Below the pieces are notes generated by a model that was given only the letters and a program-made list of their open reading frames with translations, was not told where the DNA came from and ran no database searches. Shown piece after piece: positions 8,708 to 32,420 of a DNA stretch of 54,173 nucleotides. The position numbers were made by a program, and so were the translations under genes. The DNA is taken from positions 1 to 54,173 of IMG/VR virus record IMGVR_UViG_3300013101_000011; one strand, given 5' to 3'. The DNA comes from a virus. Its lineage: Duplodnaviria > Caudoviricetes. The first letter of the stretch is position 1. Each line of letters starts with the position of its first letter.

Positions 8708-8784
8708 TGGAGCCCTCGAGGAGATTTGAACTCCTACTTGGTCGGTTAGGAACCGACCGCACTATCCATTTATGCTACAAGGGC
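8708..8784 (-). tRNA. tRNA-Arg(CCU)
   Basis: Cloverleaf; anticodon arm GTCGG-TTCCTAA-CCGAC; encoded CCA. Confidence 0.9.
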
Positions 8785-8792
8785 ATTTTGTT

Positions 8793-8867
8793 TGGAGCTC
8801 TCTGTGAGAATTGAACTCACGTCACATCCTTACCAAGGACGTATAATTGCCATTATACTAAGAGAGC
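8793..8867 (-). tRNA. tRNA-Thr(GGU)
   Basis: Anticodon arm CGTCC-TTGGTAA-GGATG; encoded CCA. Confidence 0.9.
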
Positions 8868-8868
8868 G

Positions 8869-9240
8869 TTATTTAAATCCGTATTCTTGTTTGGTGTTGA
8901 TTAAAACTTGATGGCCGATCCTGCTCACTAACCATAATGTTTGCAGATCGTGTTCTTGCAAGGAAACTGTGTTCCCCATTGACAGCTTCATTCCGCCTGG
9001 GTAATATTTTCTGTCGTAGTGACTTTCTTGGCCGATCTTTCCATAAAGCGTTCCGCCACGGACATCTTTTGTTAGTTCGATAACTATTCGTTTTAGCCTA
9101 GGCTTAATAACTATATCGCCATGCCAGGGATTGTTTATTTCCTCGGGAGTCATTTTAAGGATAGCAATCAATATGTCTTGTTCGAGAACTTGATCCTCGA
9201 ATTCATGTATTTTGCCATCTTCCCATTTAATAATTGACAT
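8869..9240 (-). CDS. Hypothetical protein within tRNA operon 1
   Basis: 123-aa ORF after a TAAATA motif. Confidence 0.6.
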   Translation of the reverse strand: MSIIKWEDGKIHEFEDQVLEQDILIAILKMTPEEINNPWHGDIVIKPRLKRIVIELTKDVRGGTLYGKIGQESHYDRKYYPGGMKLSMGNTVSLQEHDLQTLWLVSRIGHQVLINTKQEYGFK

Positions 9241-9445
9241 ACAAGTATTTATCTTTCATAATTGGTACCACTGCCTTTAAAGCTGCCAATTGTTCTCGTT
9301 GTTTCTTCCTACGATTCCGTTTACTTTTTATGTTTCGTCCTTTCCATGTAGGTGTAATACTATGACAATTAGGGCAGAGAATTCTTAAATTTTCTCGGCG
9401 ATGATCTTCATAATCGAACCTCGTCGTTGTTATGATATTTATCAA
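9227..9445 (-). pseudogene. HNH endonuclease remnant, C-terminal part only
   Basis: ENLRILCPNCHSITPTWKGRN present; N-terminal CxxC and HNH start missing; no good start codon. Confidence 0.6.
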
Positions 9446-9470
9446 GGTTCGAATAGAGGATGATTTTAAT

Positions 9471-9561
9471 TGGTACTAGGCGGAGGAATCGAACCTGCAC
9501 CAGGGGGTTATCTGCCCAATCCGTCTATAAAACGGCCCACTCGCCACGAGTTACGCCTAGC
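9471..9561 (-). tRNA. tRNA-Ile(UAU), atypical, long variable arm
   Basis: Acceptor GCTAGGC/GCCTAGT; loop TT-TAT-AG; ~20-nt variable region; TTCGATT; ACCA. Confidence 0.7.
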
Positions 9562-9569
9562 ATTATTAT

Positions 9570-9668
9570 TGAGCCCTCCGGGGGTATCGAACCCTCTAGA
9601 ATATTCCTTCTCCCAATTCAACTATGCCGGCTGTTGAACGTGGCGCATTACCTTTATGCTAGAAGGGC
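9570..9668 (-). ncRNA. tRNA-like RNA with extended non-canonical anticodon arm
   Basis: Acceptor, D arm and TTCGATA T loop present; centre is a TTCAAC-N10-GTTGAA hairpin; no CCA. Confidence 0.5.
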
Positions 9669-9675
9669 ATTAATT

Positions 9676-9751
9676 TGGTGGGCCCCCGGAGACTTGAACT
9701 CCGCCCTAGCGATTATGAGTCGCTTGCTCTCGCCCGGTGAGCTATGGGCCC
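9676..9751 (-). tRNA. tRNA-Ile2-type (CAU)
   Basis: Anticodon arm AGCGA-CTCATAA-TCGCT, like the bacterial lysidine tRNA-Ile2; CCA. Confidence 0.85.
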
Positions 9752-9760
9752 AAATATAAC

Positions 9761-9818
9761 AGGATAGAATTTTATTTGATTAAAAGTCAAGTTGGTTTTG
9801 AGTTGCTGTTACTATCCT
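9761..9818 (-). ncRNA. Small RNA carrying a tRNA-Lys(UUU)-like anticodon stem-loop
   Basis: AGGATAG...CTATCCT closing stem, ACAGCAA segment, TTGA-CTTTTAA-TCAA hairpin. Confidence 0.5.
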
Positions 9819-9823
9819 AAAAC

Positions 9824-9898
9824 TGGTAGTGACGGTTGGAATTGAACCAACGACATGCTCCTTATGAAGGAGGGGCTTAACCATTCAGCTTCGTCACC
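9824..9898 (-). tRNA. tRNA-Met(CAU)
   Basis: Loop TTCATAA within CTCC/GGAG stem; CCA. Confidence 0.85.
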
Positions 9899-10119
9899 AT
9901 AATTCTGGCTCGTTTTTATAGAGGTGAACACTCCTCCTATTTCTTGCCATCGTCGTATAACTTTTTAATAGCTAGCCACGATGTTAAATCTCTCCTTGTC
10001 GTTTTAATAACAATTGGGTTTTTAGCAGTTTTTAAGATCTCTCTATACAGTTTGATCTTTGAAACTATCTCATAATAATCTACACTAATTGCTCATTCAT
10101 AATACACTCTCCTTTAAAA

Positions 10120-10275
10120 ATTGTATTCGTGCGCGGCCCGGGTCACAACCCCCGGTCTGTCTCTCAGTTAATGTTGGTGGCCACCAACATAAATCGATGC
10201 TAGGTGTACAGTGTCGTCAACCGTGTACTAAGGTCAGTTCATACCGTTATCTCAGCTTGCCGCGCCGAATACAAT
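10120..10275 (-). ncRNA. Structured ncRNA, copy A of the AGCTGAGA/palindrome family
   Basis: ATTGTATTCG/CGAATACAAT terminal stem; 20-nt palindrome at 10171-10190; GGTTGTGA-loop hairpin; covaries with copy B. Confidence 0.65.
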
Positions 10276-10283
10276 CTTATAAA

Positions 10284-10437
10284 ATTGTATTGATCCTGCG
10301 CCTCAGTCACAACCCTGAGATCTCGCAGTCTATGTCGGCGGCCGCCGACATAAGTGGTAGCTATGTGCGTGGAATGATCATTAACGGCCTTTTCAACAAT
10401 CAGCGCCACTTTCTCAGCTTACGCAGGTCAATACAAT
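10284..10437 (-). ncRNA. Structured ncRNA, copy B
   Basis: ATTGTATTGA/TCAATACAAT terminal stem; 22-nt palindrome at 10331-10352; CTCAG-GGTTGTGA-CTGAG hairpin. Confidence 0.65.
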
Positions 10438-10618
10438 CTTAATAACTTATTCTACAAAATTCACTTTCGTTTACTTGTTGCCAATATACTGTTCCTACTT
10501 CCGCATTTATCATATAAACCGTGCTGTCTATTTGAGTAACAATGTCTCCTAATAGACTGATAAAATACATGAATTGATCTACTGTTATACATTCAATCAT
10601 TTCCTTTTCCTCTAAATT

Positions 10619-10706
10619 TGGAGCCAACGGTCAGATTCGAACTGACGATGCCCTTTCGGATGAGGCTTACAAAGCCCCTGCATTCGACCGCTAATGCTAC
10701 GTTGGC
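10619..10706 (-). tRNA. tRNA-Thr(UGU), long variable arm
   Basis: GGGGC-TTTGTAA-GCCTC; variable arm with GAAA loop; CCA. Confidence 0.8.
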
Positions 10707-10710
10707 AAAA

Positions 10711-10856
10711 TTTATAGTGGCCTATTCTTCCTAGTCAATCCGTTTAAATATCTCTCCGCGATTCTCACCACCTGTATACGGGCCTGAGCTGGCACTTTGA
10801 GACCGACCTACGAGCTTTTGGTCATCCGCCGTGATCATCTTTCGATGCACTATAAA
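10711..10856 (-). ncRNA. Putative structured ncRNA
   Basis: TTTATAGTG/CACTATAAA terminal stem; internal CATC-GAAA-GATG hairpin; lies between tRNAs. Confidence 0.45.
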
Positions 10857-10858
10857 AT

Positions 10859-10934
10859 TGGCATCCCTAGAGAGATTCGAACTCCCATCTTTCGGCTTAG
10901 AAGGCCTAATGTTATCCAGTTGACTTATAGGGAC
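10859..10934 (-). tRNA. tRNA-Arg(UCU)
   Basis: Loop CTTCTAA; acceptor GTCCCTA/TAGGGAT; GCCA end. Confidence 0.85.
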
Positions 10935-10940
10935 ATAATT

Positions 10941-11016
10941 TGGTGCCGCAAGGAAGAGTCGAACTCCCGACCTGATGCTTACAAGGCAACTGCTCTACCA
11001 ACTGAGCTATTGCGGC
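10941..11016 (-). tRNA. tRNA-Thr(UGU)
   Basis: Canonical D arm; loop CTTGTAA; ACCA. Confidence 0.9.
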
Positions 11017-11017
11017 G

Positions 11018-11257
11018 TTATTCTATTATGACAGTTATGACTCCCGAGTTGCCCAATTTAATATTTGGATTCAGACTGTAGTCATATAGCAGTTGAATTA
11101 ATTCGTCTCGGATTACTCCGTGTCCAACGATAAATTCAGCTGTCTCTGTCTTTCCTGCTGTACGCACATCGCCTATAATTACTTCGGTTTGTCGTAAAGC
11201 ATCTTCTAGTTTGTTTCCATGGAAGTCGCGCTTTATCATACTTCTATTTATACTCAC
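11018..11257 (-). CDS. Stand-alone Smr-domain protein
   Basis: DFHG...A...FIVGHG...GNSGVITV matches Smr motifs. Confidence 0.7.
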   Translation of the reverse strand: MSINRSMIKRDFHGNKLEDALRQTEVIIGDVRTAGKTETAEFIVGHGVIRDELIQLLYDYSLNPNIKLGNSGVITVIIE

Positions 11258-11264
11258 TAATGTT

Positions 11265-11341
11265 TGGCTCCATTCAAAGGACTCGAACCTTTCGCGTGGT
11301 GATTAACAGTCACCCCCCATCACCAGGATGGGCCGAATGGA
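11265..11341 (-). tRNA. tRNA-Asn(GUU)
   Basis: GGTGA-CTGTTAA-TCACC; U1-A72, G73; CCA. Confidence 0.9.
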
Positions 11342-11540
11342 ATAAATTTGGTAGCTGCAATTCGGGATTCCAATTACGGTTAGGCAACCGACTAGCGGCG
11401 CTTTATAACCCTCGTATACTTTCCCCTAGCAACTTTCCAGGGTACGTATTATAAGCCGGTATTTGTTAGACGCTCATCAACGTCACCTTCTGTCTTCCCA
11501 AACAGTTAGGGAGGTTTCCCGGACCTCGGGAAATGTATTT

Positions 11541-11626
11541 TGGCTCCAGCGGTAGGGATCGAACCTACGCTCCCGGGGGAGTCTGCGCATTAACAGTGCG
11601 AAACATTACCTCTCTGCCACACTGGA
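11541..11626 (-). tRNA. tRNA-Asn(GUU), long variable arm
   Basis: CGCA-CTGTTAA-TGCG; CTCC/GGAG variable stem; flanked by a GTATTTTGG/CCAAAATAC inverted repeat. Confidence 0.8.
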
Positions 11627-11646
11627 CCAAAATACACTTACATCTA

Positions 11647-11760
11647 ATTTTATGACCTTGCCTATTTCTCCCTACAAATGTTACACAGGTCCTGCGACTC
11701 GAACGCTAAGGGCAGTAAACGACCACCCTGTCCACCTTGGAAAACCCGCATCATAAAAAT
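11647..11760 (-). ncRNA. Putative ncRNA with T-loop-like hairpin
   Basis: TTTTATGA/TCATAAAA terminal stem; GCG-TTCGAGT-CGC. Confidence 0.45.
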
Positions 11761-11893
11761 TAAATTTGGCGTCCCCGTTTATTTTTGTAGGGCAGGAACA
11801 AATACTCCCTAAATGGTTTTGGTATATGGGTAACAGAGGTGATCAACCTTAGCTTACATATACCGTTCGTCGCGACACTGTCCATCACAGTAT

Positions 11894-12008
11894 TAAATCA
11901 TCTTATTAACTACACTTTCCGGAATTGAACCGGCTTCTGCAGGTGCCCCACTTATCGTTCACGTCCTGGTAGCTACAACAGGATCAATGCAGTTAATAAG
12001 ATGATTTA
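11894..12008 (-). ncRNA. Long-stem RNA with T-loop hairpin overlapping the end of the ArfA-like ORF
   Basis: 18-bp perfect terminal inverted repeat, extendable with G-U pairs; CCGG-TTCAATT-CCGG. Confidence 0.55.
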
Positions 12009-12124
12009 GCCTTCTTGTCGTGTTTCCACTTACTCTTACCCTTACGGGAATAGTCCTTTTTACGATCTCGCATCGTAACAGATTTGTTATACTTGCGAGC
12101 ATGTTTTGCTACTAAGTTATTCAT
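11993..12124 (-). CDS. Small basic protein resembling ArfA-type ribosome rescue factors
   Basis: 43 aa MNNLVAKHARKYNKSVTMRDRKKDYSRKGKSKWKHDKKAKSSY; AAGGAG SD; below the ORF-track cutoff. Confidence 0.55.
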   Translation of the reverse strand: MNNLVAKHARKYNKSVTMRDRKKDYSRKGKSKWKHDKKAKSSY

Positions 12125-12321
12125 AACATTTCTCCTTTTAAAAAATTGTGCCGATGTATAGAGCCTCCCGTTTAAGAGCTTGACGCCCGTTCCCGAAGGG
12201 TATTCGAATGTACCACGGCTCGTACCTCGTTCAATTATCGCGTGGTTTTATTAGATCGCCAACTGTGCGACCACTTCCCGTTTCCCCAATTGGGTAAGGC
12301 GCTTACCACGTGCGCAGGGAT

Positions 12322-12397
12322 TGGTAGTTCCGGAAGGAATCTAACCCTCATTTCCCGGTAATCGGCCGGGCGTCTTAGACGTTAGACAGACGGAACT
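12322..12397 (-). tRNA. tRNA-Ile(GAU), atypical (C33, U37, T loop TTAGATT)
   Basis: Acceptor AGTTCCG/CGGAACT; CCCGG-CCGATTA-CCGGG; ACCA. Confidence 0.65.
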
Positions 12398-12405
12398 ATA
12401 AAATT

Positions 12406-12479
12406 TGGTTGCTGATAGTGGAATCGAACCACTGTCGGTAAGTTATCAGCTTACTGCTCTACCATTGAGCTAATCGGCA
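12406..12479 (-). tRNA. tRNA-Ile(GAU)
   Basis: GTAAG-CTGATAA-CTTAC; ACCA. Confidence 0.9.
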
Positions 12480-12556
12480 ATTGTGCTGGACTTGCTTTGG
12501 TCAGGATAGACCGTAGCCTTGTGTTGCCAGCATACACCTTTTTCTACATAATCAAT

Positions 12557-12568
12557 TGTTAAAGAACG
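12557..12568 (-). promoter_or_regulatory. boxA-like antitermination element
   Basis: CGTTCTTTAACA versus rrn boxA TGCTCTTTAACA; lies between the terminator and the first tRNA. Confidence 0.6.
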
Positions 12569-12596
12569 TTACACTTGTTTAGCAAGTGTGAGCCAT

Positions 12597-12631
12597 AAAA
12601 AAAGCCCGGGTTGCTTGCGCTTGCCGGGCTT
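12597..12631 (-). terminator. Attenuator-type intrinsic terminator of tRNA operon 1
   Basis: AAGCCCGGCAAGCGCAAGCAACCCGGGC-T7, 22 nt after the leader stop. Confidence 0.8.
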
Positions 12632-12653
12632 CTAGTATTTTATCTGTTAAGAC

Positions 12654-12740
12654 TTAAACTATCATACCCTCACGCGCACCAATAATATTTTTCATATTAT
12701 TAATTGTGGTCGTTCTTGTTATAATTGTTTCTGTGCTCAT
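12654..12740 (-). CDS. Leader peptide 1 (ANN-codon sensor), MSTETIITRTTTINNMKNIIGAREGMIV
   Basis: 19 of the first 20 codons start with A; ATG is 5 nt after GATAAATA; followed by a terminator and NNU-anticodon tRNAs. Confidence 0.8.
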   Translation of the reverse strand: MSTETIITRTTTINNMKNIIGAREGMIV

Positions 12741-12935
12741 GTGTTTATTTATCGCCTTTGTTAAATTTCGTTAAATTTCTTATCCTAAAACTTCGAGTGC
12801 CAGCTTATTCAAACGAGGACAATATATACCTCTTCGCTCTAATGCTATTTGTTCAGCTCGCAAATGATCGGTTCGCAATCAATAAGCTAGCACTCGATCT
12901 ATGTAGTATATATCCTTTGCGGATTATGTCTACCT

Positions 12936-13130
12936 TTATTTCTCCCAAACAGTAAAATCGTGTTCGACTTCGCTCGCGCCTGTTGTATGATGGATGCCGG
13001 GCAATTTCTGTTTTACCAGTTCCCGCGCCGCTTCTCCGGATTCAGCAATTACGATTGCTGTACCACGTTCGGTCTGCGACCATTGGTAACTAACAGCCCA
13101 TTTTCGAATTCTAGAATCTCGGGTATTCAC
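12936..13130 (-). CDS. Hypothetical protein
   Basis: 64-aa ORF in the gene tiling. Confidence 0.5.
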   Translation of the reverse strand: MNTRDSRIRKWAVSYQWSQTERGTAIVIAESGEAARELVKQKLPGIHHTTGASEVEHDFTVWEK

Positions 13131-13650
13131 GTCTGTCTACTTGCTCCCAACTTTTCTCATTAAATATTTGATCGAGTTCGCGCTTCGTTTGCACGTTGCT
13201 CACGTGGTGGATTCCAATTCCTTTCTTTGCCCTAAATGGTATAATGGATTTCTCCAACCTGTCGTCAATTAGGATAATGTCAGGATACGCAAATCTTTCT
13301 TTACTCTTAGAATCCGGTACAAGAAGAACTTCCTTAATCTCCGGAAAGTGTTCTTTATACCATTGAATTTTCTGTTTGCCGATCGCTTCCTCGTTGCTGA
13401 AACCCGTTGCTGTTAAAACTTTCACGTCAGCATCAAATCCCATTGCGTATGCTACTAAATCTTTGGCGCCCGGTAACATGGGGAGGTCGATGAAGAATGT
13501 CGGGGAGGCAAATACTTGGTTTTTTAATCCTGTGTCGGAAAATGCGTCAGGACCAGCCATGCTTAAATCGATTCCGGTAACTGCTAATACACCTGCTTCA
13601 AAATCGGCCAGGACCCCGTCGGAGTCGAAATATATAATTGGCCTGTTCAT
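13111..13650 (-). CDS. 5'(3')-deoxyribonucleotidase-like HAD phosphatase
   Basis: YFDSDGVLADF, VLTA, LIDD motifs. Confidence 0.8.
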   Translation of the reverse strand: MNRPIIYFDSDGVLADFEAGVLAVTGIDLSMAGPDAFSDTGLKNQVFASPTFFIDLPMLPGAKDLVAYAMGFDADVKVLTATGFSNEEAIGKQKIQWYKEHFPEIKEVLLVPDSKSKERFAYPDIILIDDRLEKSIIPFRAKKGIGIHHVSNVQTKRELDQIFNEKSWEQVDRREYPRF

Positions 13651-13662
13651 GCATGTATTTAC

Positions 13663-14364
13663 CTAGTCTTTATTTTTGCCTACGTTTTCGAGATTGACCA
13701 GAAGATCCGATCCCTCTTCCATCAACTTCTCGCATTTTGTTTCGAGAATTTCCCGGTTAGTTGATCCTGCCGGCTCAGCGTCGATTTCCTTTTGAAGCTC
13801 ATCGATTTTTTCGTTAATCTGTTCGATCCGCTGCATTGTTTCTATCACTTTGGTGAACTCGATCGCACCGCTGTTTACCGCTGCGTCAAGATCATTTATG
13901 ATCCGCGCAGCCATGTTTACTGCGGCATTATCAATATTGACAATAATTTTCATTTTCCGCACGGTAAAGAATTGCACAATTTCTGATAATGCGAATATAG
14001 CAGCCACAACATAAAATCCGTGTGTTATAAGGATGGGTGTCGCGATCACTGTACAGAATGCGGCAATTCCTCTTACTGTTGAGCGGGTTGGAGAGGTATA
14101 AACTTCCTTGCTCTTCTCAGTCAAGTCTCGTTTCGCTACCGTCTTCAGCGGCAGTATTAAAATTATACTACCCGCGATAAGAGCTATTAAACAAAAACCA
14201 GCAATTATGTATAGCAACCATTCGGCATATTCGTTGTCGTTAAAAGAAGCATATACCACAGTCATTAAAATTACTAGTCGGAAGCCAATGCCTGTGATGA
14301 AAATGTTTATCTTCTTTTGATTCGCTTTTGCTGTAATTTCTTGCTCAGTAGGTTCATTTTCCAT
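13663..14364 (-). CDS. Hypothetical membrane protein with C-terminal coiled coil
   Basis: About 4 hydrophobic helices; start reassigned to MENEP after an early promoter. Confidence 0.65.
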   Translation of the reverse strand: MENEPTEQEITAKANQKKINIFITGIGFRLVILMTVVYASFNDNEYAEWLLYIIAGFCLIALIAGSIILILPLKTVAKRDLTEKSKEVYTSPTRSTVRGIAAFCTVIATPILITHGFYVVAAIFALSEIVQFFTVRKMKIIVNIDNAAVNMAARIINDLDAAVNSGAIEFTKVIETMQRIEQINEKIDELQKEIDAEPAGSTNREILETKCEKLMEEGSDLLVNLENVGKNKD

Positions 14365-14489
14365 CTGTATTGTCTCGGTTTTGTTTAAATATACGTATAT
14401 TATACAGGTTTTTAGGTTTATGGTAAACCATAAAAAAACCTTGCAAATCAACGACTTACAAGGTTTTAAACTTCTTTAAAATCAATGCC

Positions 14490-14939
14490 TTATGCAGGAT
14501 CGCCTGACAGCTTATCAATCATACTTAGCTTGGAAGCCATGTCAATTTTGGATACGTACCTGGGCCATGCTACATTGCCAAGTCCATATGTGAAAAGAAT
14601 GCCTGCGTACCAATACATATCTGCCGCCACCAGGAAATAAGATGTGCCGCAACAGATCAAACCAAATGCATAAATTGCAATCGCTTGTGGCTTCCACATG
14701 TTAAATTCCAAAACTGCAATATCAGTCTTGATTGCATATTCTGCTGGAATTAATGTTGTGCAAAGTAACAGCATAACCGTATGTGCTACAATGAGGATAA
14801 TTACAAAAGCTGAAACGCCTTTGTCATCGTAGCCTGCCAACATGTAAAGTATCGGGCCGATGATCGCCATTCGAAGTGCAAAACCCAATGCGGTTTTTGC
14901 TGTGAATTTTAAAAACTTTCCTTTGTGATCTTCTGTCAT
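14490..14939 (-). CDS. Hypothetical membrane protein
   Basis: About 4 hydrophobic helices. Confidence 0.65.
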   Translation of the reverse strand: MTEDHKGKFLKFTAKTALGFALRMAIIGPILYMLAGYDDKGVSAFVIILIVAHTVMLLLCTTLIPAEYAIKTDIAVLEFNMWKPQAIAIYAFGLICCGTSYFLVAADMYWYAGILFTYGLGNVAWPRYVSKIDMASKLSMIDKLSGDPA

Positions 14940-15020
14940 TTCTATGTCCTAGTAATTTAAATTAATTGTTAAAGTAAGTATAAGGAATTCTGGGTTATTA
15001 GTAAATGTTTTTGGTAAGAT

Positions 15021-15042
15021 AAAAGGGGCCGAAACCCCTTTT
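15021..15042 (-). terminator. Intrinsic terminator
   Basis: AAAAGGGG-CCGAAA-CCCCTTTT hairpin after the YadA-like gene. Confidence 0.65.
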
Positions 15043-15058
15043 ATCCTAAGTTTCCTAC

Positions 15059-16192: not shown

Positions 16193-16297
16193 TTTTTGTT
16201 TCCTGGCCGATGGCCGTTGGGTTAGTTGCTTCTTCACTCAAAACTATAAGCTATTTTGAATAATTTTCAAACATATTTGGATTGGACAGAGTGTGTT

Positions 16298-17269
16298 CTA
16301 CCGCACAGAATTGATAATATCCATATGCTTATTGTAGATCCAATTGTCCCAATATTCCTTATCGCTAGTCTCAGGGAGGCTGGATGCTGCGGCAAGTCTA
16401 GTAACCTCTGCAACCAATTCCTCAATAGCTGGTTGAACGACATCCTTGTAACCACATTTGCCAAGCTTGACATCCATGATAAAGTCTGTCTCCGGCAGAG
16501 GGTAATTGAACCCGCCAATCTCGTAAATGTATTTTGCTTGGTAGCCTGCGCGAAGTGCGTGACTAACTGCTTTCCAGTCAACGCCCATATTGCTTTCAGC
16601 TTTCTTTGCGCGATGACCATAGCCATCATAAATCTTTTGCATGTTATCTAAGATATACGGAAGCTTGTTTTTGAAGTCGAACTTACGTTGGCAAATTTCG
16701 TAGAAGTGTTGCTTCTCACCTTTAACTTCGGTTTCGACAATGTATGCATGTTCGCCAATTGGAATGTCGTCGATAACTTCTCCCAATTTCCATTCGTGAC
16801 CATCCTCACCATAGGTACCAAATTGTCTAAGGTAATCCATTGCCTCTGTTAATGCTGCAAGGCGCGAACCTTTAACACCATACTTCGCGGCTTGGCCTTG
16901 TACATAATCAACATATGAGGACATGTCTTTTGTGTAGAACAGGTGCCTCTTTTCCTGCAACTCTGCCCAAATTGGAGATGGGATTAAGACCTGCGCGTCC
17001 GATGCGTGAAGCATATCTATTGCAGTATTCTTTCCAGCCATTGCCATTTTTACAAACTTCTGCAAGCTCATAATTTCGTTGTCGACATCGTCTGCGGTGT
17101 TCTTGCTCACGTCATCGCCAGTGGATTGCTTGCGGCTGAAGTCTGCCTCTTGCATGATAATTTCTTTTGCAGTTGGCAACACAATAGCCGCGTAATCAAT
17201 ATCGCTTCCTTCGTGGTTCAACCCATACAGGTGAGAACCATATTCCATTTTTACTACAATTTCGTTCAT
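16298..17269 (-). CDS. Pol-beta superfamily nucleotidyltransferase, T4 NrdC.11/RlaP-like
   Basis: YGSHLYG...SDID; QAAKYGVKGSR; DWKAVSHA motifs. Confidence 0.8.
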   Translation of the reverse strand: MNEIVVKMEYGSHLYGLNHEGSDIDYAAIVLPTAKEIIMQEADFSRKQSTGDDVSKNTADDVDNEIMSLQKFVKMAMAGKNTAIDMLHASDAQVLIPSPIWAELQEKRHLFYTKDMSSYVDYVQGQAAKYGVKGSRLAALTEAMDYLRQFGTYGEDGHEWKLGEVIDDIPIGEHAYIVETEVKGEKQHFYEICQRKFDFKNKLPYILDNMQKIYDGYGHRAKKAESNMGVDWKAVSHALRAGYQAKYIYEIGGFNYPLPETDFIMDVKLGKCGYKDVVQPAIEELVAEVTRLAAASSLPETSDKEYWDNWIYNKHMDIINSVR

Positions 17270-21747: not shown

Positions 21748-21767
21748 CTGTTGGTTCCTTAATGTTT

Positions 21768-21809: not shown

Positions 21810-21817
21810 ATTTGTCC

Positions 21818-21845: not shown

Positions 21846-21869
21846 AAACCGGAGAATGCCAATGCCCGT

Positions 21870-22445: not shown

Positions 22446-22470
22446 AAAAAAGGGGCCCGGAGGCCCCTTT
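22446..22470 (-). terminator. Intrinsic terminator
   Basis: AAAGGGGCC-TCCG-GGCCCCTTTTTT. Confidence 0.75.
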
Positions 22471-22490
22471 AATAAAACCCTGTACTAGGA

Positions 22491-23018: not shown

Positions 23019-23075
23019 TAGTGTGCTGTAACCACTTTGTATCTCAAAGTAATTGCGGTATGAATTATTAGGGAT

Positions 23076-23393: not shown

Positions 23394-23421
23394 AATATTA
23401 TTTATGATAAATATTGTAGCA

Positions 23422-24150: not shown

Positions 24151-24153
24151 AAA

Positions 24154-25991: not shown

Positions 25992-26860
25992 ATTCCTGTT
26001 CTATCTAGACGGGCATAATCGTTTTCCGGATAGTTTACCATTTCTTTACTAGTCGTTCCGCGGGACTGAGTTGGCGCTTGTATCGGCCTGTTTAATGCAA
26101 TCACATCTATGTCCTTTTTAATTGCAATGCTTAACATAATACCCCCTGGAAATCCTAATGTAAAGTTTTCCGAACCTATACGTTCGAAATATTTATTAAC
26201 TTCAAACACTGCATGTTGATAAAACGTATCTTTAATTGTGGAAACGGCAGCTCGATTAAGTATAAAGGCATACGGCCAGGTCATCATTGAACTTGCATGC
26301 CATTTACCCATTCCATGAGACATATCATACATTATTGGAATGTCTGCAAGATGAGCGTCTGCTTTAAACACTTCTATATTCCGTTGTGTCATTTCACCTA
26401 ATAGGCATTCTTGGTCTACATGATTCTCAAATATTGTATCAATTTGCCGTAGCACAACATAATCATATTCTAATATGTCTGGTCGATTTAGTAAATAATT
26501 GCAAGTCCACCATTGAGCTAGTCGTTTGCAACTAGCAGAATATTCATTCCTGTAATCTCTCCTAATTAATTTTTCGTATTCGGCAGATGTAAGTTTATTG
26601 CGGGTCAATGACGTAATACAAACGAAACCCATGTCATATGTTTCGGCCAGCATTTCTCCATAGGATAATTTGGCAACAGTTATGGGGCCAGCATCAAAAT
26701 AGTTGTGTAACGGATTCATCCCTGTTGCATTGTCCCATGTTGCAATTTCTTGTTTAGTTATTAGTGACGCTAAGTCTCGCGGCAGATCGGTACATAATTG
26801 ATTTTCATATTTGCCACCAAGTTTTCGCACCTGGCCGAACAGGCAATCTTTAATTTTCAT
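25988..26860 (-). CDS. Tandem paralog, possibly glycosyltransferase-like
   Basis: Same motifs; start reassigned to MKIKDC. Confidence 0.65.
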   Translation of the reverse strand: MKIKDCLFGQVRKLGGKYENQLCTDLPRDLASLITKQEIATWDNATGMNPLHNYFDAGPITVAKLSYGEMLAETYDMGFVCITSLTRNKLTSAEYEKLIRRDYRNEYSASCKRLAQWWTCNYLLNRPDILEYDYVVLRQIDTIFENHVDQECLLGEMTQRNIEVFKADAHLADIPIMYDMSHGMGKWHASSMMTWPYAFILNRAAVSTIKDTFYQHAVFEVNKYFERIGSENFTLGFPGGIMLSIAIKKDIDVIALNRPIQAPTQSRGTTSKEMVNYPENDYARLDRTGI

Positions 26861-26887
26861 GCATGTATTTATTGTATAAATATTGGT

Positions 26888-27880
26888 ATGGAAAAAATCA
26901 AAAAGGCTGTAATTGAAGTTTGCGGGTCCTGCAATTACTCTTGTCAAATGTGTCCGCAATCTGCGACACTAGGTGGAAGAGAAAAGGAATTCAAAAAGAA
27001 TATGCCACTCGCTACATTCAAAACAATACTAGACGAATTAAAGGCCGACCATGACCTACAGGAAATTTATTTAGAAGGTTCCGGTGAGCCTACAATGAAT
27101 AAGAAGCTACCGGATTATATTGCGTACGGAACTGAGCTAGGATTTAAAATGTCTTTCATTACCAACGGCACCGGCTTTACTGGACAGAAAATGAAAGACA
27201 TAATTGATGCTGGAATGCATTATGCCCGCATCAGCGTTATTGGTAGCACTCCGGAATTATATGCAGAGTGGATGCCGAATGCAGCTGGCAAGGATGAAGA
27301 TACACTTGAGGATATAATTGCCAACACTAATGAAACACTTGAATATATTAAATCCTCGGGAAGCAATGCGATCTTAGGATCGTATCATTTAATAACCGAC
27401 AATATGTTAGAGAAGGAACAGGTCCAACAATATAAAATGCATTGGGTTGATAGAGTCCCGGGTATCGCAGCTAACATCTGGCGTATGCATAATTGGTCAG
27501 GACAGTTGACTGGTGTTACATGGAGAGAAGGACACAAAATGAGAAGTTGCGGCCGACCAAATAGTCCTGACATTGTTATTAGAGCAGGCGGCATAGATGG
27601 CAAACACGCTGCGGTAGTTCCATGCTGCATGGTACTAGGACGAGACAGCGAAGCGGTCATGGGTCACCTTAGTGAAGATACAATTGCAGAAGTTTACAAC
27701 GGCGATGCTTATAATCACCTTCGCAAAATGCACGACGAACATAGATTCGATGAAATTAGTTATTGCAAGGATTGTGATATGTTATACGATGCTCCGGAGG
27801 CATTGGTGTGGAGTAACGCGGGCGCTGATTACAATACACTAACTGGTGGAATATTTGATATGAAAGAGTATAGGAAATAA
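26888..27880 (+). CDS. Radical SAM protein with SPASM/twitch domain
   Basis: CNYSCQMC, GEP, C-terminal PCC...CKDC; TATAAATA at 26875-26882. Confidence 0.9.
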   Translation: MEKIKKAVIEVCGSCNYSCQMCPQSATLGGREKEFKKNMPLATFKTILDELKADHDLQEIYLEGSGEPTMNKKLPDYIAYGTELGFKMSFITNGTGFTGQKMKDIIDAGMHYARISVIGSTPELYAEWMPNAAGKDEDTLEDIIANTNETLEYIKSSGSNAILGSYHLITDNMLEKEQVQQYKMHWVDRVPGIAANIWRMHNWSGQLTGVTWREGHKMRSCGRPNSPDIVIRAGGIDGKHAAVVPCCMVLGRDSEAVMGHLSEDTIAEVYNGDAYNHLRKMHDEHRFDEISYCKDCDMLYDAPEALVWSNAGADYNTLTGGIFDMKEYRK

Positions 27881-27908
27881 TGCACAAGCAGAAAACAAAG
27901 GAACAAAG

Positions 27909-28187
27909 TTATTCATCGTCTAGTGTAAATTCAAGATCAATTACAACAGAATGACCTTTGTGATCAATTCCTTGCACGGTCCAAGTATCTTTGATTGTGT
28001 TGTGGTGAACTACTGCTGACAATGAATACAGGTTGCCGTCATCGTATTCCGCAACCATACTGCATTTATGATTATGTTCCTTTTCAAATCCATGAAGAAC
28101 AACCTCAGTCGCTGTCGGAGGATTCTTCGTCGGAGCTCTCCTCTTGTACCATGTCACTGCGTAATCTGGTCGTATCGTAAAGTTCAT
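27909..28187 (-). CDS. Hypothetical protein
   Basis: 92-aa ORF. Confidence 0.5.
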   Translation of the reverse strand: MNFTIRPDYAVTWYKRRAPTKNPPTATEVVLHGFEKEHNHKCSMVAEYDDGNLYSLSAVVHHNTIKDTWTVQGIDHKGHSVVIDLEFTLDDE

Positions 28188-28844
28188 TGTAGTCTAATTC
28201 TTTCCAAGTTTTATAAAATGTTTGGGGAATTGGTATAGTGTGGTATGTTCCCCACATTGTATCCAATCCGTGATGTTCTAATAACTGCCTCATTGCGCCC
28301 GAACTAGTAGTCCACGTCTTAGACCAGGTCTTACCGTTAGCTGTGGATTTATAAGTCTTCTTAAATCCTCCCTTCTTTGTTACTCCTCCCTTTTCAAATA
28401 CACCAATCCAACCGAGGGCAAATGTGCTATCTTGCCCTCGGTATAGGATCTGTGTTACAAAACGTCCTTCCTTAATTTTCATTTAGTATTGAATCGTAGT
28501 ACGAACCAAATTGCGTCAGACTCTTTTTCAAACCACCATCTAGTATTGGAATAATGGTAATAATATTTTCCAGCTGACTCTTGTTGGTTGCACCACTCTT
28601 TAGCCTGTTGCATTTCTTCACGCTGTGGAGCAGAAACAGCGCACCAATCTTCTCGGCGGTCCTGCTTCTCTTTATTCGACCACTTCATTGGCCAATGTTA
28701 GCTAGCGAAACTACCATGATGACTGCACCTACAGTAATCATCAATAATGCTGCCAATACCATTCCGAAACGATTTTCATATCTCTATTCCTATTGTTTAA
28801 AGTACAATTATATTAGGCGAGCGCCTAAAGGTACAACGATTTGG

Positions 28845-29594
28845 TTAATCCATTTTCCAGATAATACCTTTACTTCGATCAAGTATTATGAATTCTCGTA
28901 TACCGGTAATAGGTGTTGCATTTGACGTCCCGGAATTAACAATTGTCTTAGCATGCCATGTGTGTCCATTCTCGTCTGTCTTTATAGTTTCAGTTACCAC
29001 TTCCCATGGGTAGCTAATAATTACACCGTATACTCGTAATTGATCACCGTCACAATAAACGGCCGGCCCTCCGCTCATGCCAGGGATTGCAAGTGCATTT
29101 GATCGAATTTTTCTCTGCTCGGTCAAGCGCAATACCATACCTCCATACGAATGCAGATGCGGTCTGTTATATTCCGGAAAGCCTATGTTCCACATTGGCG
29201 TGTGTTGGTATAATAGGCCTTGTGCCATTTTCATTGGGATCCAATCTTCGGGAGATTCTGCTGTTACAATTGCAATATCGCGGTGTTTGTTCCATCCAGT
29301 TATTTCCGATGGGACGATTTCTCCATCAACAAATAATTCTACTTTAGCAACATCAGCATCCCATATACTATGAGCTGCGGTGGCCCATTTGTTCCTTGCA
29401 ACGAGGAAAGCCGTGCTGAGTCCTGTAATTACTCCTTTTTCGTTTAGAGTCTTTATCATTACAATTGGAAGTTCGTTGAAGTCCGCCACACAGGAAGGTG
29501 GAACGATTACGTTTATTGCTGTAGCATTGGCGTTGGTTGTAAATAACAGCAATAAGATAATTAGATATCTTGCTATCACAATAGTATTTATCAA
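28845..29594 (-). CDS. Trypsin-like serine protease with signal peptide
   Basis: TAAH, DIA and GMSGGP catalytic motifs. Confidence 0.85.
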   Translation of the reverse strand: MINTIVIARYLIILLLLFTTNANATAINVIVPPSCVADFNELPIVMIKTLNEKGVITGLSTAFLVARNKWATAAHSIWDADVAKVELFVDGEIVPSEITGWNKHRDIAIVTAESPEDWIPMKMAQGLLYQHTPMWNIGFPEYNRPHLHSYGGMVLRLTEQRKIRSNALAIPGMSGGPAVYCDGDQLRVYGVIISYPWEVVTETIKTDENGHTWHAKTIVNSGTSNATPITGIREFIILDRSKGIIWKMD

Positions 29595-29867
29595 TTAGTC
29601 GTTAGTACAGATTTCTAGTATCCGCTTTGCACTGACGATTGTGCATTTATCTTGTATTTCTTTTATCCTACGCTTTGGAATATCGTAGTGTTTGTGGGTT
29701 GCGCGGGAATGATACCAGCACGGATGTATCCCTAAATCCTGCGCCATCTTGTGTAAATTTTCTACACTGTACGGGAGGCATACTAGATGCCTATTTTGGT
29801 CACAATAGTATTTTAAGTTTAAGGAAATAGTCATAAATAATAGCAGTAGTTTAATAAATGATATCAA
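29595..29867 (-). CDS. DUF4031-like small protein
   Basis: LHKMAQDLGI..W...HYDI motif; start uncertain. Confidence 0.6.
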   Translation of the reverse strand: MISFIKLLLLFMTISLNLKYYCDQNRHLVCLPYSVENLHKMAQDLGIHPCWYHSRATHKHYDIPKRRIKEIQDKCTIVSAKRILEICTND

Positions 29868-29999
29868 AAGGAACTATCAATCAGTTTAGCCCACAGTCTA
29901 TGGGTCTGGTGGAAAACGCTTGTGTTTTAAAGTAATAAATCTAAGATTTATTATGTTTATGTTCAAACACTGTTAGTCGTTTTTTTTACTCTTCTAATT

Positions 30000-30085
30000 T
30001 GGTGGGCCACGAGGGACTCGAACCCTCACTCCTTTCGAAACTGGTACCTAAAACCAGCGCGTCTGCCAAATTCCGCCAGCAGCCC
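30000..30085 (-). tRNA. tRNA-Leu(UAG)
   Basis: CTGGT-TTTAGGT-ACCAG; long variable arm; ACCA. Confidence 0.9.
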
Positions 30086-30091
30086 GTTATT

Positions 30092-30601
30092 CTATTTATT
30101 TACTTTATGTCTAAGCCTATAATATCTGCCCTGACAGGCACTACAGCTTATTCCTAATTTTTTTGCCGCCTCACGTTTTCCTATTCTATCGCAAAGCTCT
30201 ATTAATTCTTTTGGATCCATTGCTGGCTTCCGGCCTCCGTTTTTTGCCTTCGCCCTATAAATTGGATCAGTAGCATATTTCGCGTTTAACGACTTAGACA
30301 AATTCTTTCGATGTTTGTCTGATTTTCCTTGTCCTATTCCACCCTTGCCGCCTACTTTCATATTATAACATTGTTGATCTTTTACCAGCTCTTCAGTTAC
30401 GATTTCGGCCTCTCTACTAAATGCTTCGTCTGCTGTCTCGAATCTTTCGAGTACTTCTCTTTTAAATTTTTTAGTTCCGTACTTTTTAATGGCTTGTAAC
30501 AGAGCTGTCCCGGAACCTTTGTAACACGAATTAGTTAATCCATGGACTCCGATATAATATTTCCCATTAATAAGATTGGTAGTTTTATATAAAATATGCA
30601 C
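30092..30601 (-). mobile_element. Free-standing GIY-YIG (Seg-like) homing endonuclease gene in tRNA operon 2
   Basis: LYKTTNLINGKYYIG, YKGSG, YN...GG motifs; C-terminal HTH. Confidence 0.8.
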
Positions 30602-30650
30602 ATATTTATTTATATGCCATTTACCAATCTTGTATCTTTACTATCAAATT

Positions 30651-30727
30651 TGGTACGCCCCAAGGGATTTGAACCCTCATCAGTCCGGGTAAAAGCCGGA
30701 GGTAATTGCCATTTATACGAAGGACGC
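30651..30727 (-). tRNA. tRNA-Lys(UUU), C38 variant
   Basis: TCCGG-CTTTTAC-CCGGA; ACCA. Confidence 0.85.
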
Positions 30728-30737
30728 ATTAAAAATT

Positions 30738-30813
30738 TGGTGGGTCCGGTCGGGATCGAACCGACGACCAGGAGGTTAAAAGCCAACTGCTCTACCAACT
30801 GAGCTACAGACCC
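30738..30813 (-). tRNA. tRNA-Lys(UUU), mismatched anticodon stem
   Basis: Host-like body; GTTGG-CTTTTAA-CCTCC. Confidence 0.85.
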
Positions 30814-30823
30814 AAATCTAATT

Positions 30824-30914
30824 TGGTGGGACGGGCAGGGTTCGAACCTGCAACGGTGTTATTCACACTCCGGATTAAAAGTCCGGTACCTTCAGCCACT
30901 TCGGTCACCGACCC
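30824..30914 (-). tRNA. tRNA-Lys(UUU), long variable arm
   Basis: CCGGA-CTTTTAA-TCCGG; GTGT/ACAC variable stem; ACCA. Confidence 0.8.
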
Positions 30915-30988
30915 ACATTCTGTGCAAAACGATTATTCGTTGTGCAAAACGTTTTTATTCTTCGGTAAACGTTACAAACCGATTAACT

Positions 30989-31065
30989 TGGTGGGACGCC
31001 CGGGATTTGAACCCGGATCAGCCTGGGTAAGAACCAGGGGTAATTGCCATTTATACGAACGACCC
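30989..31065 (-). tRNA. tRNA-Lys(CUU)
   Basis: CCTGG-TTCTTAC-CCAGG; ACCA. Confidence 0.85.
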
Positions 31066-31142
31066 AAATTTGGGGCAGTTTATTTTAACGGATTCACTAT
31101 CTCCGCCTAGGTCAAGTCTGCCAACAACCTAGCTTGCAAGTT

Positions 31143-31217
31143 TGGTGCTCCGACGGAGAATCGAACTCCGATCGCCGGGTTGAAAGCCCAGTGTTCTAAC
31201 CATTAAACTACCAGAGC
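31143..31217 (-). tRNA. tRNA-Glu(UUC)
   Basis: CTGGG-CTTTCAA-CCCGG; ACCA. Confidence 0.85.
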
Positions 31218-31223
31218 GTAGTT

Positions 31224-31376
31224 TGGTACCCAGGGCAGGAGTCGAACCTGCAAAACAATACGACTATTTCCAGAAACATTGTTACGGCCTTTCTGGTCAT
31301 ATCCGCTCACCCTCTGCTTATTCTTCAGAGGTCACCCCCTTCAGGGAGGGCCGCTTTGCCATTTGCGTACCCGGGC
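31224..31376 (-). ncRNA. Giant 153-nt tRNA-like RNA with Leu-like body and ambiguous anticodon
   Basis: Acceptor GCCCGGG/CCTGGGT, D arm, GCAGG-TTCGACT-CCTGC, ACCA; about 80-nt structured insert. Confidence 0.65.
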
Positions 31377-31383
31377 ATAAATT

Positions 31384-31466
31384 TGGTATGCGGAGAGGGA
31401 GTCGAACCCTCAAGGGCCTTGTTTCTAAAACAAGTAGGTGTACCAATTTCCATTAGCCACCCGCGC
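31384..31466 (-). tRNA. tRNA-Leu(UAG), short variable arm and enlarged D region
   Basis: CTTGT-TTTAGAA-ACAAG; ACCA. Confidence 0.75.
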
Positions 31467-31477
31467 ATAAATAAAAC

Positions 31478-31680
31478 GTTGTAACCGATAGCCAGGATTC
31501 TGTCTTGGACAGTCATTCATCTATTGGCCGTTACCCGAGCATCATAGGATGGAACTTACCTAGCTCTGTTTACGTTGCAAACCCCTTTCGTATATCGCAG
31601 TACCAACGACCGAAGTCTCCTGCACGTTCCGGGCCTGTCCTGAGCTTCCTCACCTTACGGTGCGACTGCCTGGTTACAAC
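31478..31680 (-). ncRNA. rnpB: Minimal RNase P RNA-like gene, about 200 nt
   Basis: P1 GTTGTAACC/GGTTACAAC; CAGTCGC; GAGGAAGCTCAGGA pairs with TCCTGGCT (P4 with bulged U); TAGATGAATGACTGTCCAAGACAGAA 3' conserved block. Confidence 0.85.
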
Positions 31681-31771
31681 TAACTCTAAATCTTATACGG
31701 TTCCTATATCACCCATCGTCACCGTCAACCATTGAGGTAATGAGTAGGTTAGTACCCACGACCTGTTTGCC

Positions 31772-31851
31772 TGGTGTTACTGACGGGGATCGAACCCGCA
31801 TTTTCCTGGGTGAAAACCAAGCTGCCTAGTCCAAGTTTAGCAGACAGTAAC
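31772..31851 (-). tRNA. tRNA-Glu(UUC)
   Basis: CTTGG-TTTTCAC-CCAGG; ACCA. Confidence 0.85.
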
Positions 31852-31870
31852 ATAATTCTTTTGTACAATT

Positions 31871-31944
31871 TGGTGTGTCCCACGAGAATCAAACTCGTTC
31901 CTAAAGGGCCACAACCTCTAATGCTATCACTACACCAAGGACAC
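31871..31944 (-). tRNA. tRNA-His(GUG), atypical (A73, no G-1)
   Basis: AGAGG-TTGTGGC-CCTTT; ACCA. Confidence 0.7.
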
Positions 31945-31968
31945 TTTAAATTGTACTATAATTTACTT

Positions 31969-32044
31969 TGGGGTGACGTACGGGGTTCGAACCCGTTCCG
32001 ACTGAATCACAATCAGCCATGCTTCCAAGTACACCTACGTCACC
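31969..32044 (-). tRNA. tRNA-His(GUG)
   Basis: G-1/C73; GCTGA-TTGTGAT-TCAGT; CCA. Confidence 0.9.
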
Positions 32045-32071
32045 CCAAAATAAACTATTTCTTCTACTCAT

Positions 32072-32103
32072 AAAAAAACCCGACTTGCTTTCGCTGCCGG
32101 GTT
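32072..32103 (-). terminator. Attenuator-type intrinsic terminator of tRNA operon 2
   Basis: AACCCGGCAGCGAAAGCAAGTCGGG-T7; its 5' arm can alternatively pair with leader segment 32158-32169. Confidence 0.8.
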
Positions 32104-32134
32104 CAGTGTAAATCTTTTGTTAGAAGGAAACTAT

Positions 32135-32221
32135 CTAAATAGTCGTTCCTTCCGCCAACACGGAACCCGTACATGATTTCTCATGTAATAAATGTTCGAG
32201 TTTTAGTGTCAGTGTGTTCAT
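32135..32221 (-). CDS. Leader peptide 2 (Leu/Lys/Glu/His sensor), MNTLTLKLEHLLHEKSCTGSVLAEGTTI
   Basis: Codons 6-15 are all L/K/E/H; ATG is 5 nt after GATAAATA; same length as leader 1. Confidence 0.8.
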   Translation of the reverse strand: MNTLTLKLEHLLHEKSCTGSVLAEGTTI

Positions 32222-32336
32222 ATGTTTATTTATCTCTTTTTTAATATTTCGTTAATTTTCTTGTTCAAAAATAAAAAGTTCTCTGTTGGACTGAGCTCCA
32301 ACATTTAATCCGGTCGCAACGTTACGGAAAGAAAAA

Positions 32337-32410: not shown

Positions 32411-32420
32411 ATAAACTGTT

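Follow-up and report, generated by a model that had tools for sequence, protein, structure and literature searches.

What regulates the transfer RNA (tRNA) genes of a phage? Such genes are mainly explained by codon compensation and by the replacement of tRNAs destroyed by host defences; to our knowledge, their regulation has hardly been addressed. The question is raised by IMG/VR record IMGVR_UViG_3300013101_000011, a single contig of 54,173 nucleotides (nt) from an uncultured phage of the Caudoviricetes. This contig is the whole assembly, is incomplete, and is called the window here. Nearly all of its genes lie on the minus strand, and each of its two tRNA arrays is preceded by a small unit consisting of promoter-like motifs, a 28-codon open reading frame (ORF) and an intrinsic terminator. 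We consider it probable that each unit is a ribosome-mediated transcription attenuator placed before tRNA genes. The feature is real, is found in several phage lineages and most likely represents a new use of a known mechanism. An earlier note, made from the letters of this DNA, had described an architecture shared by two tRNA operons, and all its elements were found on the minus strand where it had placed them. The same note had counted the phage among the jumbo phages, which a contig of 54 kilobases (kb) that is incomplete does not support.

Leader codons match the downstream tRNA array

All window features below are on the minus strand. ARAGORN recognized 10 tRNAs in array 1 (8708–12479) and 9 in array 2 (30000–32043), and Rfam or relaxed ARAGORN added two in array 1, a Met(cat) (9827–9898) and a second Ile(gat) (12325–12397). 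Array 1 encodes Ile(gat) x2, Asn(gtt) x2, Thr(tgt) x2, Arg(tct), Met(cat) x2, Ile(tat), Thr(ggt) and Arg(cct). Array 2 encodes His(gtg) x2, Glu(ttc) x2, Lys(ctt), Lys(ttt) x3 and Leu(tag). The sorting of tRNAs between operons proposed in the earlier note was confirmed, with no amino acid common to the Ile/Asn/Thr/Arg/Met and the His/Glu/Lys/Leu sets.

The leader-1 ORF (MSTETIITRTTTINNMKNIIGAREGMIV; 12740–12654 including the stop) has 28 codons followed by TAA, and the leader-2 ORF (MNTLTLKLEHLLHEKSCTGSVLAEGTTI; 32221–32135 including the stop) has 28 codons followed by TAG. Codon matches were scored by standard wobble rules in the best 12-codon window, with P obtained by simulation. In leader 1, 18/27 codons are read by the own array, compared with 3/27 by the other array, and codons 5–16 are all read by the own array (12/12, P < 5e-6). 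Among the 415 window ORFs of 20–80 codons only leader 1 reaches 12/12, the next best having 9. The match claimed by the earlier note was weaker in leader 2, with 8/12 by codon (P = 0.0019) and 11/12 by amino acid (P = 2e-5); its codons 4–15 read L T L K L E H L L H E K. The anticodon species represented were 7/8 for leader 1 and 4/5 for leader 2, which alone is not significant (P = 0.075 and 0.39). The missing species are the C34 ones, whose codons are also read by the U34 species.

In an alignment that reaches from the -35 region to the T run, the mean column identity of the two units is 79%. Promoter, start, spacer, terminator and the ORF length of 28 codons are conserved, and the differences are concentrated in codons 4–22. 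The units are paralogs, and in each of them the middle codons have shifted to suit the array that follows. The same length and frame, with a middle part rewritten to array codons, fits selection on codon identity and would not be expected from selection on the peptide or the RNA sequence.

Upstream of both ORFs the spacing is the same: TAACGAAAT, 11 nt, GATAAATA, 5 nt, ATG. There are exactly two exact copies of TAACGAAAT in the window, one per unit (12773–12765 and 32254–32246); allowing one mismatch, 27 were found and 22.9 expected, which is not above chance. GATAAATA has 10 copies, nine of them on the minus strand, compared with 3.6 ± 2.0 expected, and 0/100 shuffles reached 10. Six of the nine are located 23–57 nt upstream of the next ATG, which in four cases opens an ORF of at least 130 amino acids (aa), with a purine-rich stretch ahead. 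Because of this recurrence upstream of ORF starts, GATAAATA behaves as a promoter -10 element, and we infer promoters at the motifs of both leaders: TTTAAC, 17 nt and ATAAAT in leader 1 (12746–12776, with GATAAATA at 12753–12746), and ATTAAC, 17 nt and ATAAAT in leader 2 (32227–32257, with GATAAATA at 32234–32227).

The remaining three of the nine copies have an ATG exactly 5 nt on. They belong to the two leaders and to a 123-aa ORF inside array 1 (9240–8869). With the ATG this close to GATAAATA and no Shine-Dalgarno sequence, the leader mRNAs of the window are probably leaderless. A leaderless start is plausible by analogy with three other ORFs. The 123-aa ORF has a homolog of 123 aa, with 63% identity over 100% of the length; in locus L082 (7220–7508), GATAAATAAACGTATG opens an ORF of at least 96 aa; and in locus L289 (2372–2413), TTGACA-17-TACAAT-6-ATG is apparently leaderless. 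ORF starts 5–6 nt past a -10 element suggest a regular use of leaderless mRNAs in this phage group. In loci L169 and L218, we found GATAAATAA inside the spacer of a canonical TTGACA..TATAAT promoter, where two promoter types may overlap.

Both leaders end in an intrinsic terminator with the common pattern CCCGGC..GC-GNAA-GC..CGGG-T7, which comprises a GC stem, A-rich internal loops and a 2-base-pair (bp) stem capped by GNAA. Terminator 1 (12597–12630; GCCCGG..GC-GCAA-GC..CCGGGC + T7) has a predicted energy of -15.5 kcal/mol, and terminator 2 (32072–32103; hairpin + T7) of -13.5 kcal/mol. They are two of only six sites on the minus strand of the window with a hairpin and at least T6. Their T runs (12603–12597 and 32078–32072) coincide with the RNA 3' ends that the earlier note had predicted from the letters. 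The hairpins start 24 nt (unit 1) and 33 nt (unit 2) past the stop codon, and the T runs are followed by the first tRNA after 117 nt in unit 1 and 28 nt in unit 2, the latter being tRNA-His. A promoter would not fit into the 28 nt of unit 2, and neither unit has a promoter-like site on the minus strand between terminator and first tRNA.

Cut before the 3' arm of the terminator, the leaders are more stable than dinucleotide shuffles (z = -3.5 and -5.4). A hairpin, H1, is found at the equivalent place in both leaders, built from different sequence: in leader 1 it spans codons 13–21, with a GAAAA loop (12678–12704), as a candidate pause hairpin, and in leader 2 it is formed by UACAUGA-GAAA-UCAUGUA (32170–32187). 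Next to H1 there are strands able to pair with the terminator. In leader 2, the antiterminator 5' strand CGGGUUC.GUGU (32158–32169, codons 18–21) pairs with ACAC.GAACCCG (32109–32098), which overlaps the 5' arm of the terminator. This pairing is the minimum-energy fold of the full leader; its duplex has -18.6 kcal/mol (P = 0.016), and only 4% of the shuffles pair the arm equally. A hairpin inside the antiterminator loop encloses the leader-2 stop codon (32122–32153); a terminating ribosome would melt it. In leader 1, a weak candidate strand (12666–12679, codons 21–25) pairs with the 5' arm and loop of the terminator, UGCGCGUGAGGGU with GCCC..GCGCA.

Between terminator 1 and the first tRNA of array 1 there is a 7-bp hairpin (12589–12571) followed by CGTTCTTTAACAA (12568–12556), together at 12556–12589. 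The pattern [CT]TCTTTAA[ACT]AA occurs once in the window, at 12566–12556, after this hairpin. A hairpin with (A)CGTTCTTTAA(C/A)AA was also found past promoters and before tRNA arrays in L169 (2900–2935), L227 (~5290–5330), L225 (~4650–4690), L233 (~920–965), L234 (~2090–2135) and L240 (~9540–9570 and ~10060–10090). By their order, a hairpin and then the motif, past a promoter and before stable-RNA genes, these elements resemble the boxB/boxA antitermination leaders of rrn operons, of which we take the Escherichia coli boxA to be TGCTCTTTAACAA. In contrast to the rrn leaders, the window element is combined with a leader-peptide attenuator and placed after it. The boxA-like element would act only as RNA and sits past the terminator, so transcripts that cross the terminator appear to matter. 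Host Nus factors may be recruited for transcribing the long tRNA arrays, as in the rrn case.

Recurrence of the unit in uncultured phages

Near-identical DNA was found, among sequencing runs, only in three DNA runs from sediment metagenomes, one of which may be its source, and in no RNA run. In the metagenome contigs the leaders were invariant, except for one 1-nt deletion at 32252, of low depth. No close relative of the window phage was fetched, and therefore all loci in hand were scanned generically for small ORFs within 300 nt upstream of tRNAs (n = 72 ORFs). Leader 1 ranked first and leader 2 among the top six. Next after leader 1 was an ORF of L169 and L121; this ORF and two ORFs of L001 and L067 scored at least as high as leader 2. 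L169, L121, L191 and L218 had come from pattern scans by chance.

L169 has a TTGACA-17-TATAAT promoter, a 5' untranslated region with AAGAG, the ORF MKMTTQQKHMQKHICIRWFSEGGSC, a canonical terminator and then tRNAs. Its array encodes Trp, Ile, Lys, Gln, Cys, Met, Arg, His and Phe, and its leader contains all nine. The match is 11/12 by codon (P = 9.5e-5), and the same value was reached in L227 (P = 5.5e-5). L218 has TTGACA-17-TATAGT, a Shine-Dalgarno sequence, the ORF MIKTNTAYITCWPPSGGMS, a terminator and a Trp-Pro-Cys array, with four consecutive cognate codons, TGT TGG CCA CCA (Cys-Trp-Pro-Pro; P = 8.4e-5). In L289, a 44-codon ORF with an 8-bp perfect antiterminator and a terminator precedes 17 tRNAs. 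In L240, a 39-codon ORF with a perfect 11-bp antiterminator and a terminator precedes an array that ends at the contig edge.

The kin of L169, family 2, were fetched through the adjacent RNA ligase gene and a 20-nt conserved stretch, giving six leader variants. Their sensor part varies in frame only, and nearly always among array amino acids (Q/H, K/Q, H/Y/I). All indels are in frame, and conservation extends to the codon set but not to the peptide sequence. Tyr codons occur in 3/3 leaders with tRNA-Tyr and in 0/3 without it; the tRNA-Tyr(gta) of L303 is divergent and was recognized by eye in an 87-nt gap. A Lys codon is present in 5/5 leaders with tRNA-Lys, and absent in L301, whose array lacks tRNA-Lys. 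The alternative pairings co-vary as well. Pairing reaches 88% in the antiterminator helix and 93% in the terminator, with 2 and 3 compensatory pairs, respectively, compared with 30–63% in slid controls. Coming from six related sequences, this covariation offers modest support for the two structures. The H1 hairpin is also present at the equivalent place in family 2, again from different sequence.

We compared the 3' end of each ORF with the 5' side of each terminator in a 6x6 matrix. The own pairing was best in its row and column for leader 2 of the window, L169, L227, L289 and L240, the exception being leader 1 of the window. Own pairings of these five leaders ranged from -17.3 to -20.4 kcal/mol and foreign pairings from -5.9 to -14.6 kcal/mol, with shuffle P values of 0 to 0.016; all four non-window leaders thus had an antiterminator for their own terminator. 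The antiterminator strand is 1–6 codons ahead of the stop in family 2, L240 and L289, a position that a terminating ribosome would occupy, as the trp model has it.

These comparisons bear on two rival explanations. The units could be independent small genes, for a peptide or a small RNA of ~145–150 nt, with the tRNAs transcribed from other promoters or by incidental read-through. Each unit is indeed laid out completely, from promoter to terminator; between its terminator and tRNA-Gln, L240 has a separate sigma-70 promoter and a boxA-like motif; and GATAAATA motifs occur inside array 1 at 9443 and 9253. However, the window, L227 and L218 have no promoter-like site between terminator and tRNA, the gap being 22–30 nt in three cases, and a conserved codon set without a conserved peptide, together with an ORF 3' end that co-varies with the terminator arm, speaks against a separate gene. 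A peptide composition that mirrors the neighbouring tRNA genes has no other explanation either, and we find independent genes highly improbable. Chance ORFs within duplicated promoter–terminator cassettes were already very unlikely, and we give them next to no weight. The window units are paralogous, so their equal ORF length could be inherited, and short AT-rich ORFs are common, as the 415 in the window illustrate. Against this stand five leaders, belonging to at least three lineages, with P values of <5e-6, 2e-5, 9.5e-5, 5.5e-5 and 8.4e-5, and the fact that every indel is in frame.

The unit was absent from a number of other phage tRNA regions. No terminator was found within 450 nt upstream of any tRNA in T5 (23 tRNAs found) and pVp-1 (22 found), and the best 12-codon match in T5 was 6 or less. 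The tRNA regions of T5 and pVp-1 resemble the window in bringing together many tRNA genes, homing endonucleases and small ORFs; unlike in the window, their tRNAs are not sorted by amino acid and have no terminators ahead. Terminators within 450 nt upstream of a tRNA were also lacking in L067, L087, L092, L130, L177, L186, L187, L223, L225, L228, L233, L234 and L243. Phage tRNA regions therefore do not share this design in general.

The ATP-dependent DNA ligase of the window is at most 28% identical to those of GenBank phages and 38% identical to that of L169, above any GenBank phage. The design belongs to a group of uncultured phages, and by its ligase the window is a distant relative of these. 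By BLASTN against GenBank phages, the leader-1 region had no match, and the leader-2 region matched only in tRNA-His (four Vibrio phage records); the tRNA-His of pVp-1, a T5-like Vibrio phage, has 77% identity to that of the window. In viral contigs, no match was found for two proteins encoded nearby or for one promoter pattern. The protein alignment of a 292-aa neighbour covered 80 loci, without synteny of the gene and tRNA arrays: a tRNA array was present in L067 alone, and it had no leader. A metagenome scan gave one contig of 7.5 kb, L082, which ends before any leader. In the 41 kb examined of S-CREM1, the nearest cultured relative by RNA ligase (54% identity), tRNAs were absent. As search patterns, GATAAATAAACRYATG and ATAAATA-N5-ATGARCACA-N3-ACA were discarded, their matches being mostly in unrelated phages.

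Other features of the arrays and their surroundings

Array 2 contains an ORF for a GIY-YIG-type homing endonuclease (30601–30092). The L169 array is also interrupted by a homing-endonuclease gene, a 266–284-aa ORF (8366–9220, minus strand). Homing-endonuclease genes are likewise inserted in the tRNA arrays of T4 and T5.

Four tRNAs of the window are long (86–91 nt), with class-II-like variable arms: Ile(tat) (9471–9561), Thr(tgt) (10619–10706), Asn(gtt) (11541–11626) and Lys(ttt) (30824–30914). Such long arms are not usually seen in tRNAs of these identities. The long Thr(tgt), Asn(gtt) and Lys(ttt) each have a counterpart of normal length with the same anticodon in the same array, and Ile(tat) is a single copy. 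At 37075–37150 there is a further tRNA with the anticodon UUA, of the ochre-suppressor type, and two U.U mismatches in the acceptor stem. A recoding of TAA by this tRNA was rejected: TAA ends 30/59 long minus-strand ORFs and is the commonest stop, so the genetic code is not reassigned.

Between the gene for the 292-aa protein and leader 2 there are ~530 nt (32300–32830) with local hairpins, in which no ORF of at least 100 aa was found on either strand and no significant Rfam match. Comparable ORF-poor gaps are found inside the arrays (9898–10619, 11626–12325 and 31217–31772). By analogy with T5, these gaps may contain unrecognized stable RNAs. The array gaps and the surroundings of the tRNA(tta) revealed no further leader-like ORF.

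The 292-aa protein (32834–33712) is of unknown function and has at least 172 metagenomic homologs (E ≤ 0.001), several of them marine (Tara) and some on contigs of 280–330 kb. Its gene adjoins one for a TauD-family dioxygenase (33709–34620), and the two are probably an auxiliary metabolic pair.

A proposed feedback on tRNA supply

As attenuators, the window units would work as follows. Transcription would begin from the GATAAATA promoter, probably with the A of the ATG as the first nucleotide, giving a leaderless leader mRNA. A ribosome would translate the 28-codon leader, whose middle codons are those read by the downstream tRNAs. With fast decoding, the ribosome would be over or past the 3' part of the ORF, the antiterminator would not pair with the 5' arm of the terminator, the terminator hairpin would form and the RNA polymerase would stop at the T7 run, ahead of the tRNA genes. 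With scarce charged cognate tRNA, decoding of any sensor codon would be slow and the ribosome would stall upstream; the 3' segment of the ORF would then pair with the 5' arm of the terminator and the polymerase would read into the array. In unit 1, the read-through transcript would pass the boxA-like element. Since the output, tRNA, would relieve the signal, tRNA supply would feed back negatively on the transcription of tRNA genes, separately for the two sorted sets. What is observed comprises the layout of the units, their codon match, the alternative pairings, and the recurrence with co-variation in other phages; promoter use, translation of the leader ORF, regulated read-through, and the direction and strength of the response are our reading of the sequence.

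Several points weigh against this reading, some of them in the window itself. Neither leader promoter was picked up by a simple sigma-70 consensus scan of the window, and the leaders have no Shine-Dalgarno sequence. In leader 2, 9/27 codons are read by the own array and 7/27 by the other, and two TTA and one CTC are Leu codons outside the standard-wobble range of the array's Leu(tag). The suggestion of the earlier note that only the matching tRNA set would be induced is not supported, as leader 2 also carries array-1 codons and codons that its own array does not serve. The leader-1 antiterminator is weak (-11.0 kcal/mol, P = 0.13), and 26% of shuffles equal it. The leader-2 antiterminator strand stops 21 nt short of the stop codon, so that, in contrast to the trp model, it would stay free of a terminating ribosome and the discrimination would have to rest on the stop-codon hairpin.

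Similar reservations come from the other loci. In L169 and L218 the last sensor codons are 3–10 nt from the antiterminator strand, which a ribosome stalled there may mask, and in L240 the tRNAs have the separate promoter and boxA-like motif mentioned above. In family 2, L305 keeps His and Arg codons without those tRNAs in its visible array, and L301 keeps Ile, Gln, Arg and His codons with no such tRNAs in its visible 1.7 kb. The family-2 variants are related, and thus the Tyr and the Lys associations may each represent a single event. The earlier note had looked to homologues for ORF conservation and codon concordance, which four of six leader types had; concordance was not significant in L240 (P = 0.16) and in L289 (P = 0.87), the latter because its array covers most amino acids.

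L289, with 44 codons for 18/20 amino acids, and L240, with 39 codons, resemble broad samplers without a significant array-specific match. Since a ribosome senses charged tRNA and not the tRNA itself, the attenuators might report general translation capacity or amino-acid supply, as a growth-rate or stringent-type control, instead of individual tRNAs. We judge this quite improbable. The leaders of the window, L169, L227 and L218 are specifically enriched for codons of their own array, clearly in leader 1 and marginally in leader 2 when own and other array are compared, and the co-occurrence of Tyr and Lys codons with their tRNAs in family 2 points in the same direction. Moreover, tRNA synthesis does not relieve amino-acid starvation.

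The feedback could also serve counter-defence, with host anticodon nucleases depleting tRNAs, ribosomes stalling in consequence and only the matching array being switched on. The mechanism would be identical to the attenuation proposed here. The window encodes an RNA ligase of the T4 Rnl1 type (53426–54094; PF09511, 35.4 bits), an RlaP RNA-repair-type nucleotidyltransferase (16298–17269; PF10127, 37.1 bits) and a sub-threshold metallophosphatase (52293–52928), which together could form a tRNA-repair set; in family 2, the RNA ligase adjoins the attenuated array. Such repair-type genes hint, circumstantially, at a role of tRNA damage in these phages. Lys(ttt) and Glu(ttc) are prominent in array 2, with three and two genes, and tRNA-Lys(ttt) is reported to be the target of PrrC (PMC10264068) and of PARIS (PMC11464382). 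On the other hand, nothing in the sequence identifies the cause of a tRNA shortage, and the sensor sets include many tRNAs not known as nuclease targets. A plain feedback between codon supply and demand predicts the anatomy equally well, and we regard a dedicated nuclease sensor as rather unlikely.

Leader-peptide attenuators are well known from the enterobacterial trp, his, thr, leu, ilv and pheA operons, of which the multivalent thr and ilv leaders are closest to the units described here. As in these, a short ORF rich in regulatory codons and an intrinsic terminator precede the regulated genes, the antiterminator shares a strand with the terminator and lies in or near the 3' end of the ORF, a hairpin inside the ORF could pause the polymerase, and several amino acids can be sensed per leader. 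Unlike in the amino-acid operons, the phage-encoded units would regulate tRNAs and not biosynthetic enzymes, so that the decoder itself is sensed. The phage leaders also sample up to nine or more amino acids, mostly with 1–4 codons each, have no clear region-1:2 anti-antiterminator, and appear leaderless in two phage lineages. The best sub-threshold Rfam cis-regulatory matches of the units were Thr_leader (RF00506; 17.1 bits, gathering threshold 55) and Trp_leader (RF00513; 17.1–17.5 bits, gathering threshold 41), with E values of 0.6–1.1. With scores below gathering, the units are not members of these families.

The charging of tRNAs is also known to control aminoacyl-tRNA synthetases, through the pheST attenuator and T-box riboswitches. 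In both, as proposed here, the state of specific tRNAs regulates the translation apparatus via termination or antitermination. In pheST, a single amino acid is sensed and a synthetase is regulated, whereas tRNA genes would be the output here, and T-boxes bind uncharged tRNA directly, without a ribosome. Rfam searches of the whole window at the gathering threshold gave only tRNAs, and no T-box was found in E-value scans of the leaders. Our literature search found no description of leader-peptide attenuation of phage or other tRNA genes, in line with the earlier note; older work on the T5 tRNA region could hold one.

A broader view is possible, which we hold tentatively and with considerable doubt: that these units belong to a widespread and undescribed class of phage cis-regulators that sense decoding codon by codon and switch on the tRNAs that are lacking, with codon sets co-evolving with the arrays, and that would report nuclease-caused tRNA loss beside the repair enzymes of the phage. 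Metagenomes allow large-scale tests of the match between leader codons and arrays and of how it co-varies among relatives. If the attenuation reading is true, leader-peptide attenuation would be newly used with tRNA genes as its output, the units would be compact natural parts that report the availability of chosen tRNAs, and they would give a testable and direct read-out of the tRNAs that become limiting during infection. The phage itself would measure decoding capacity and adjust its tRNA supply by feedback, for each sorted tRNA set.

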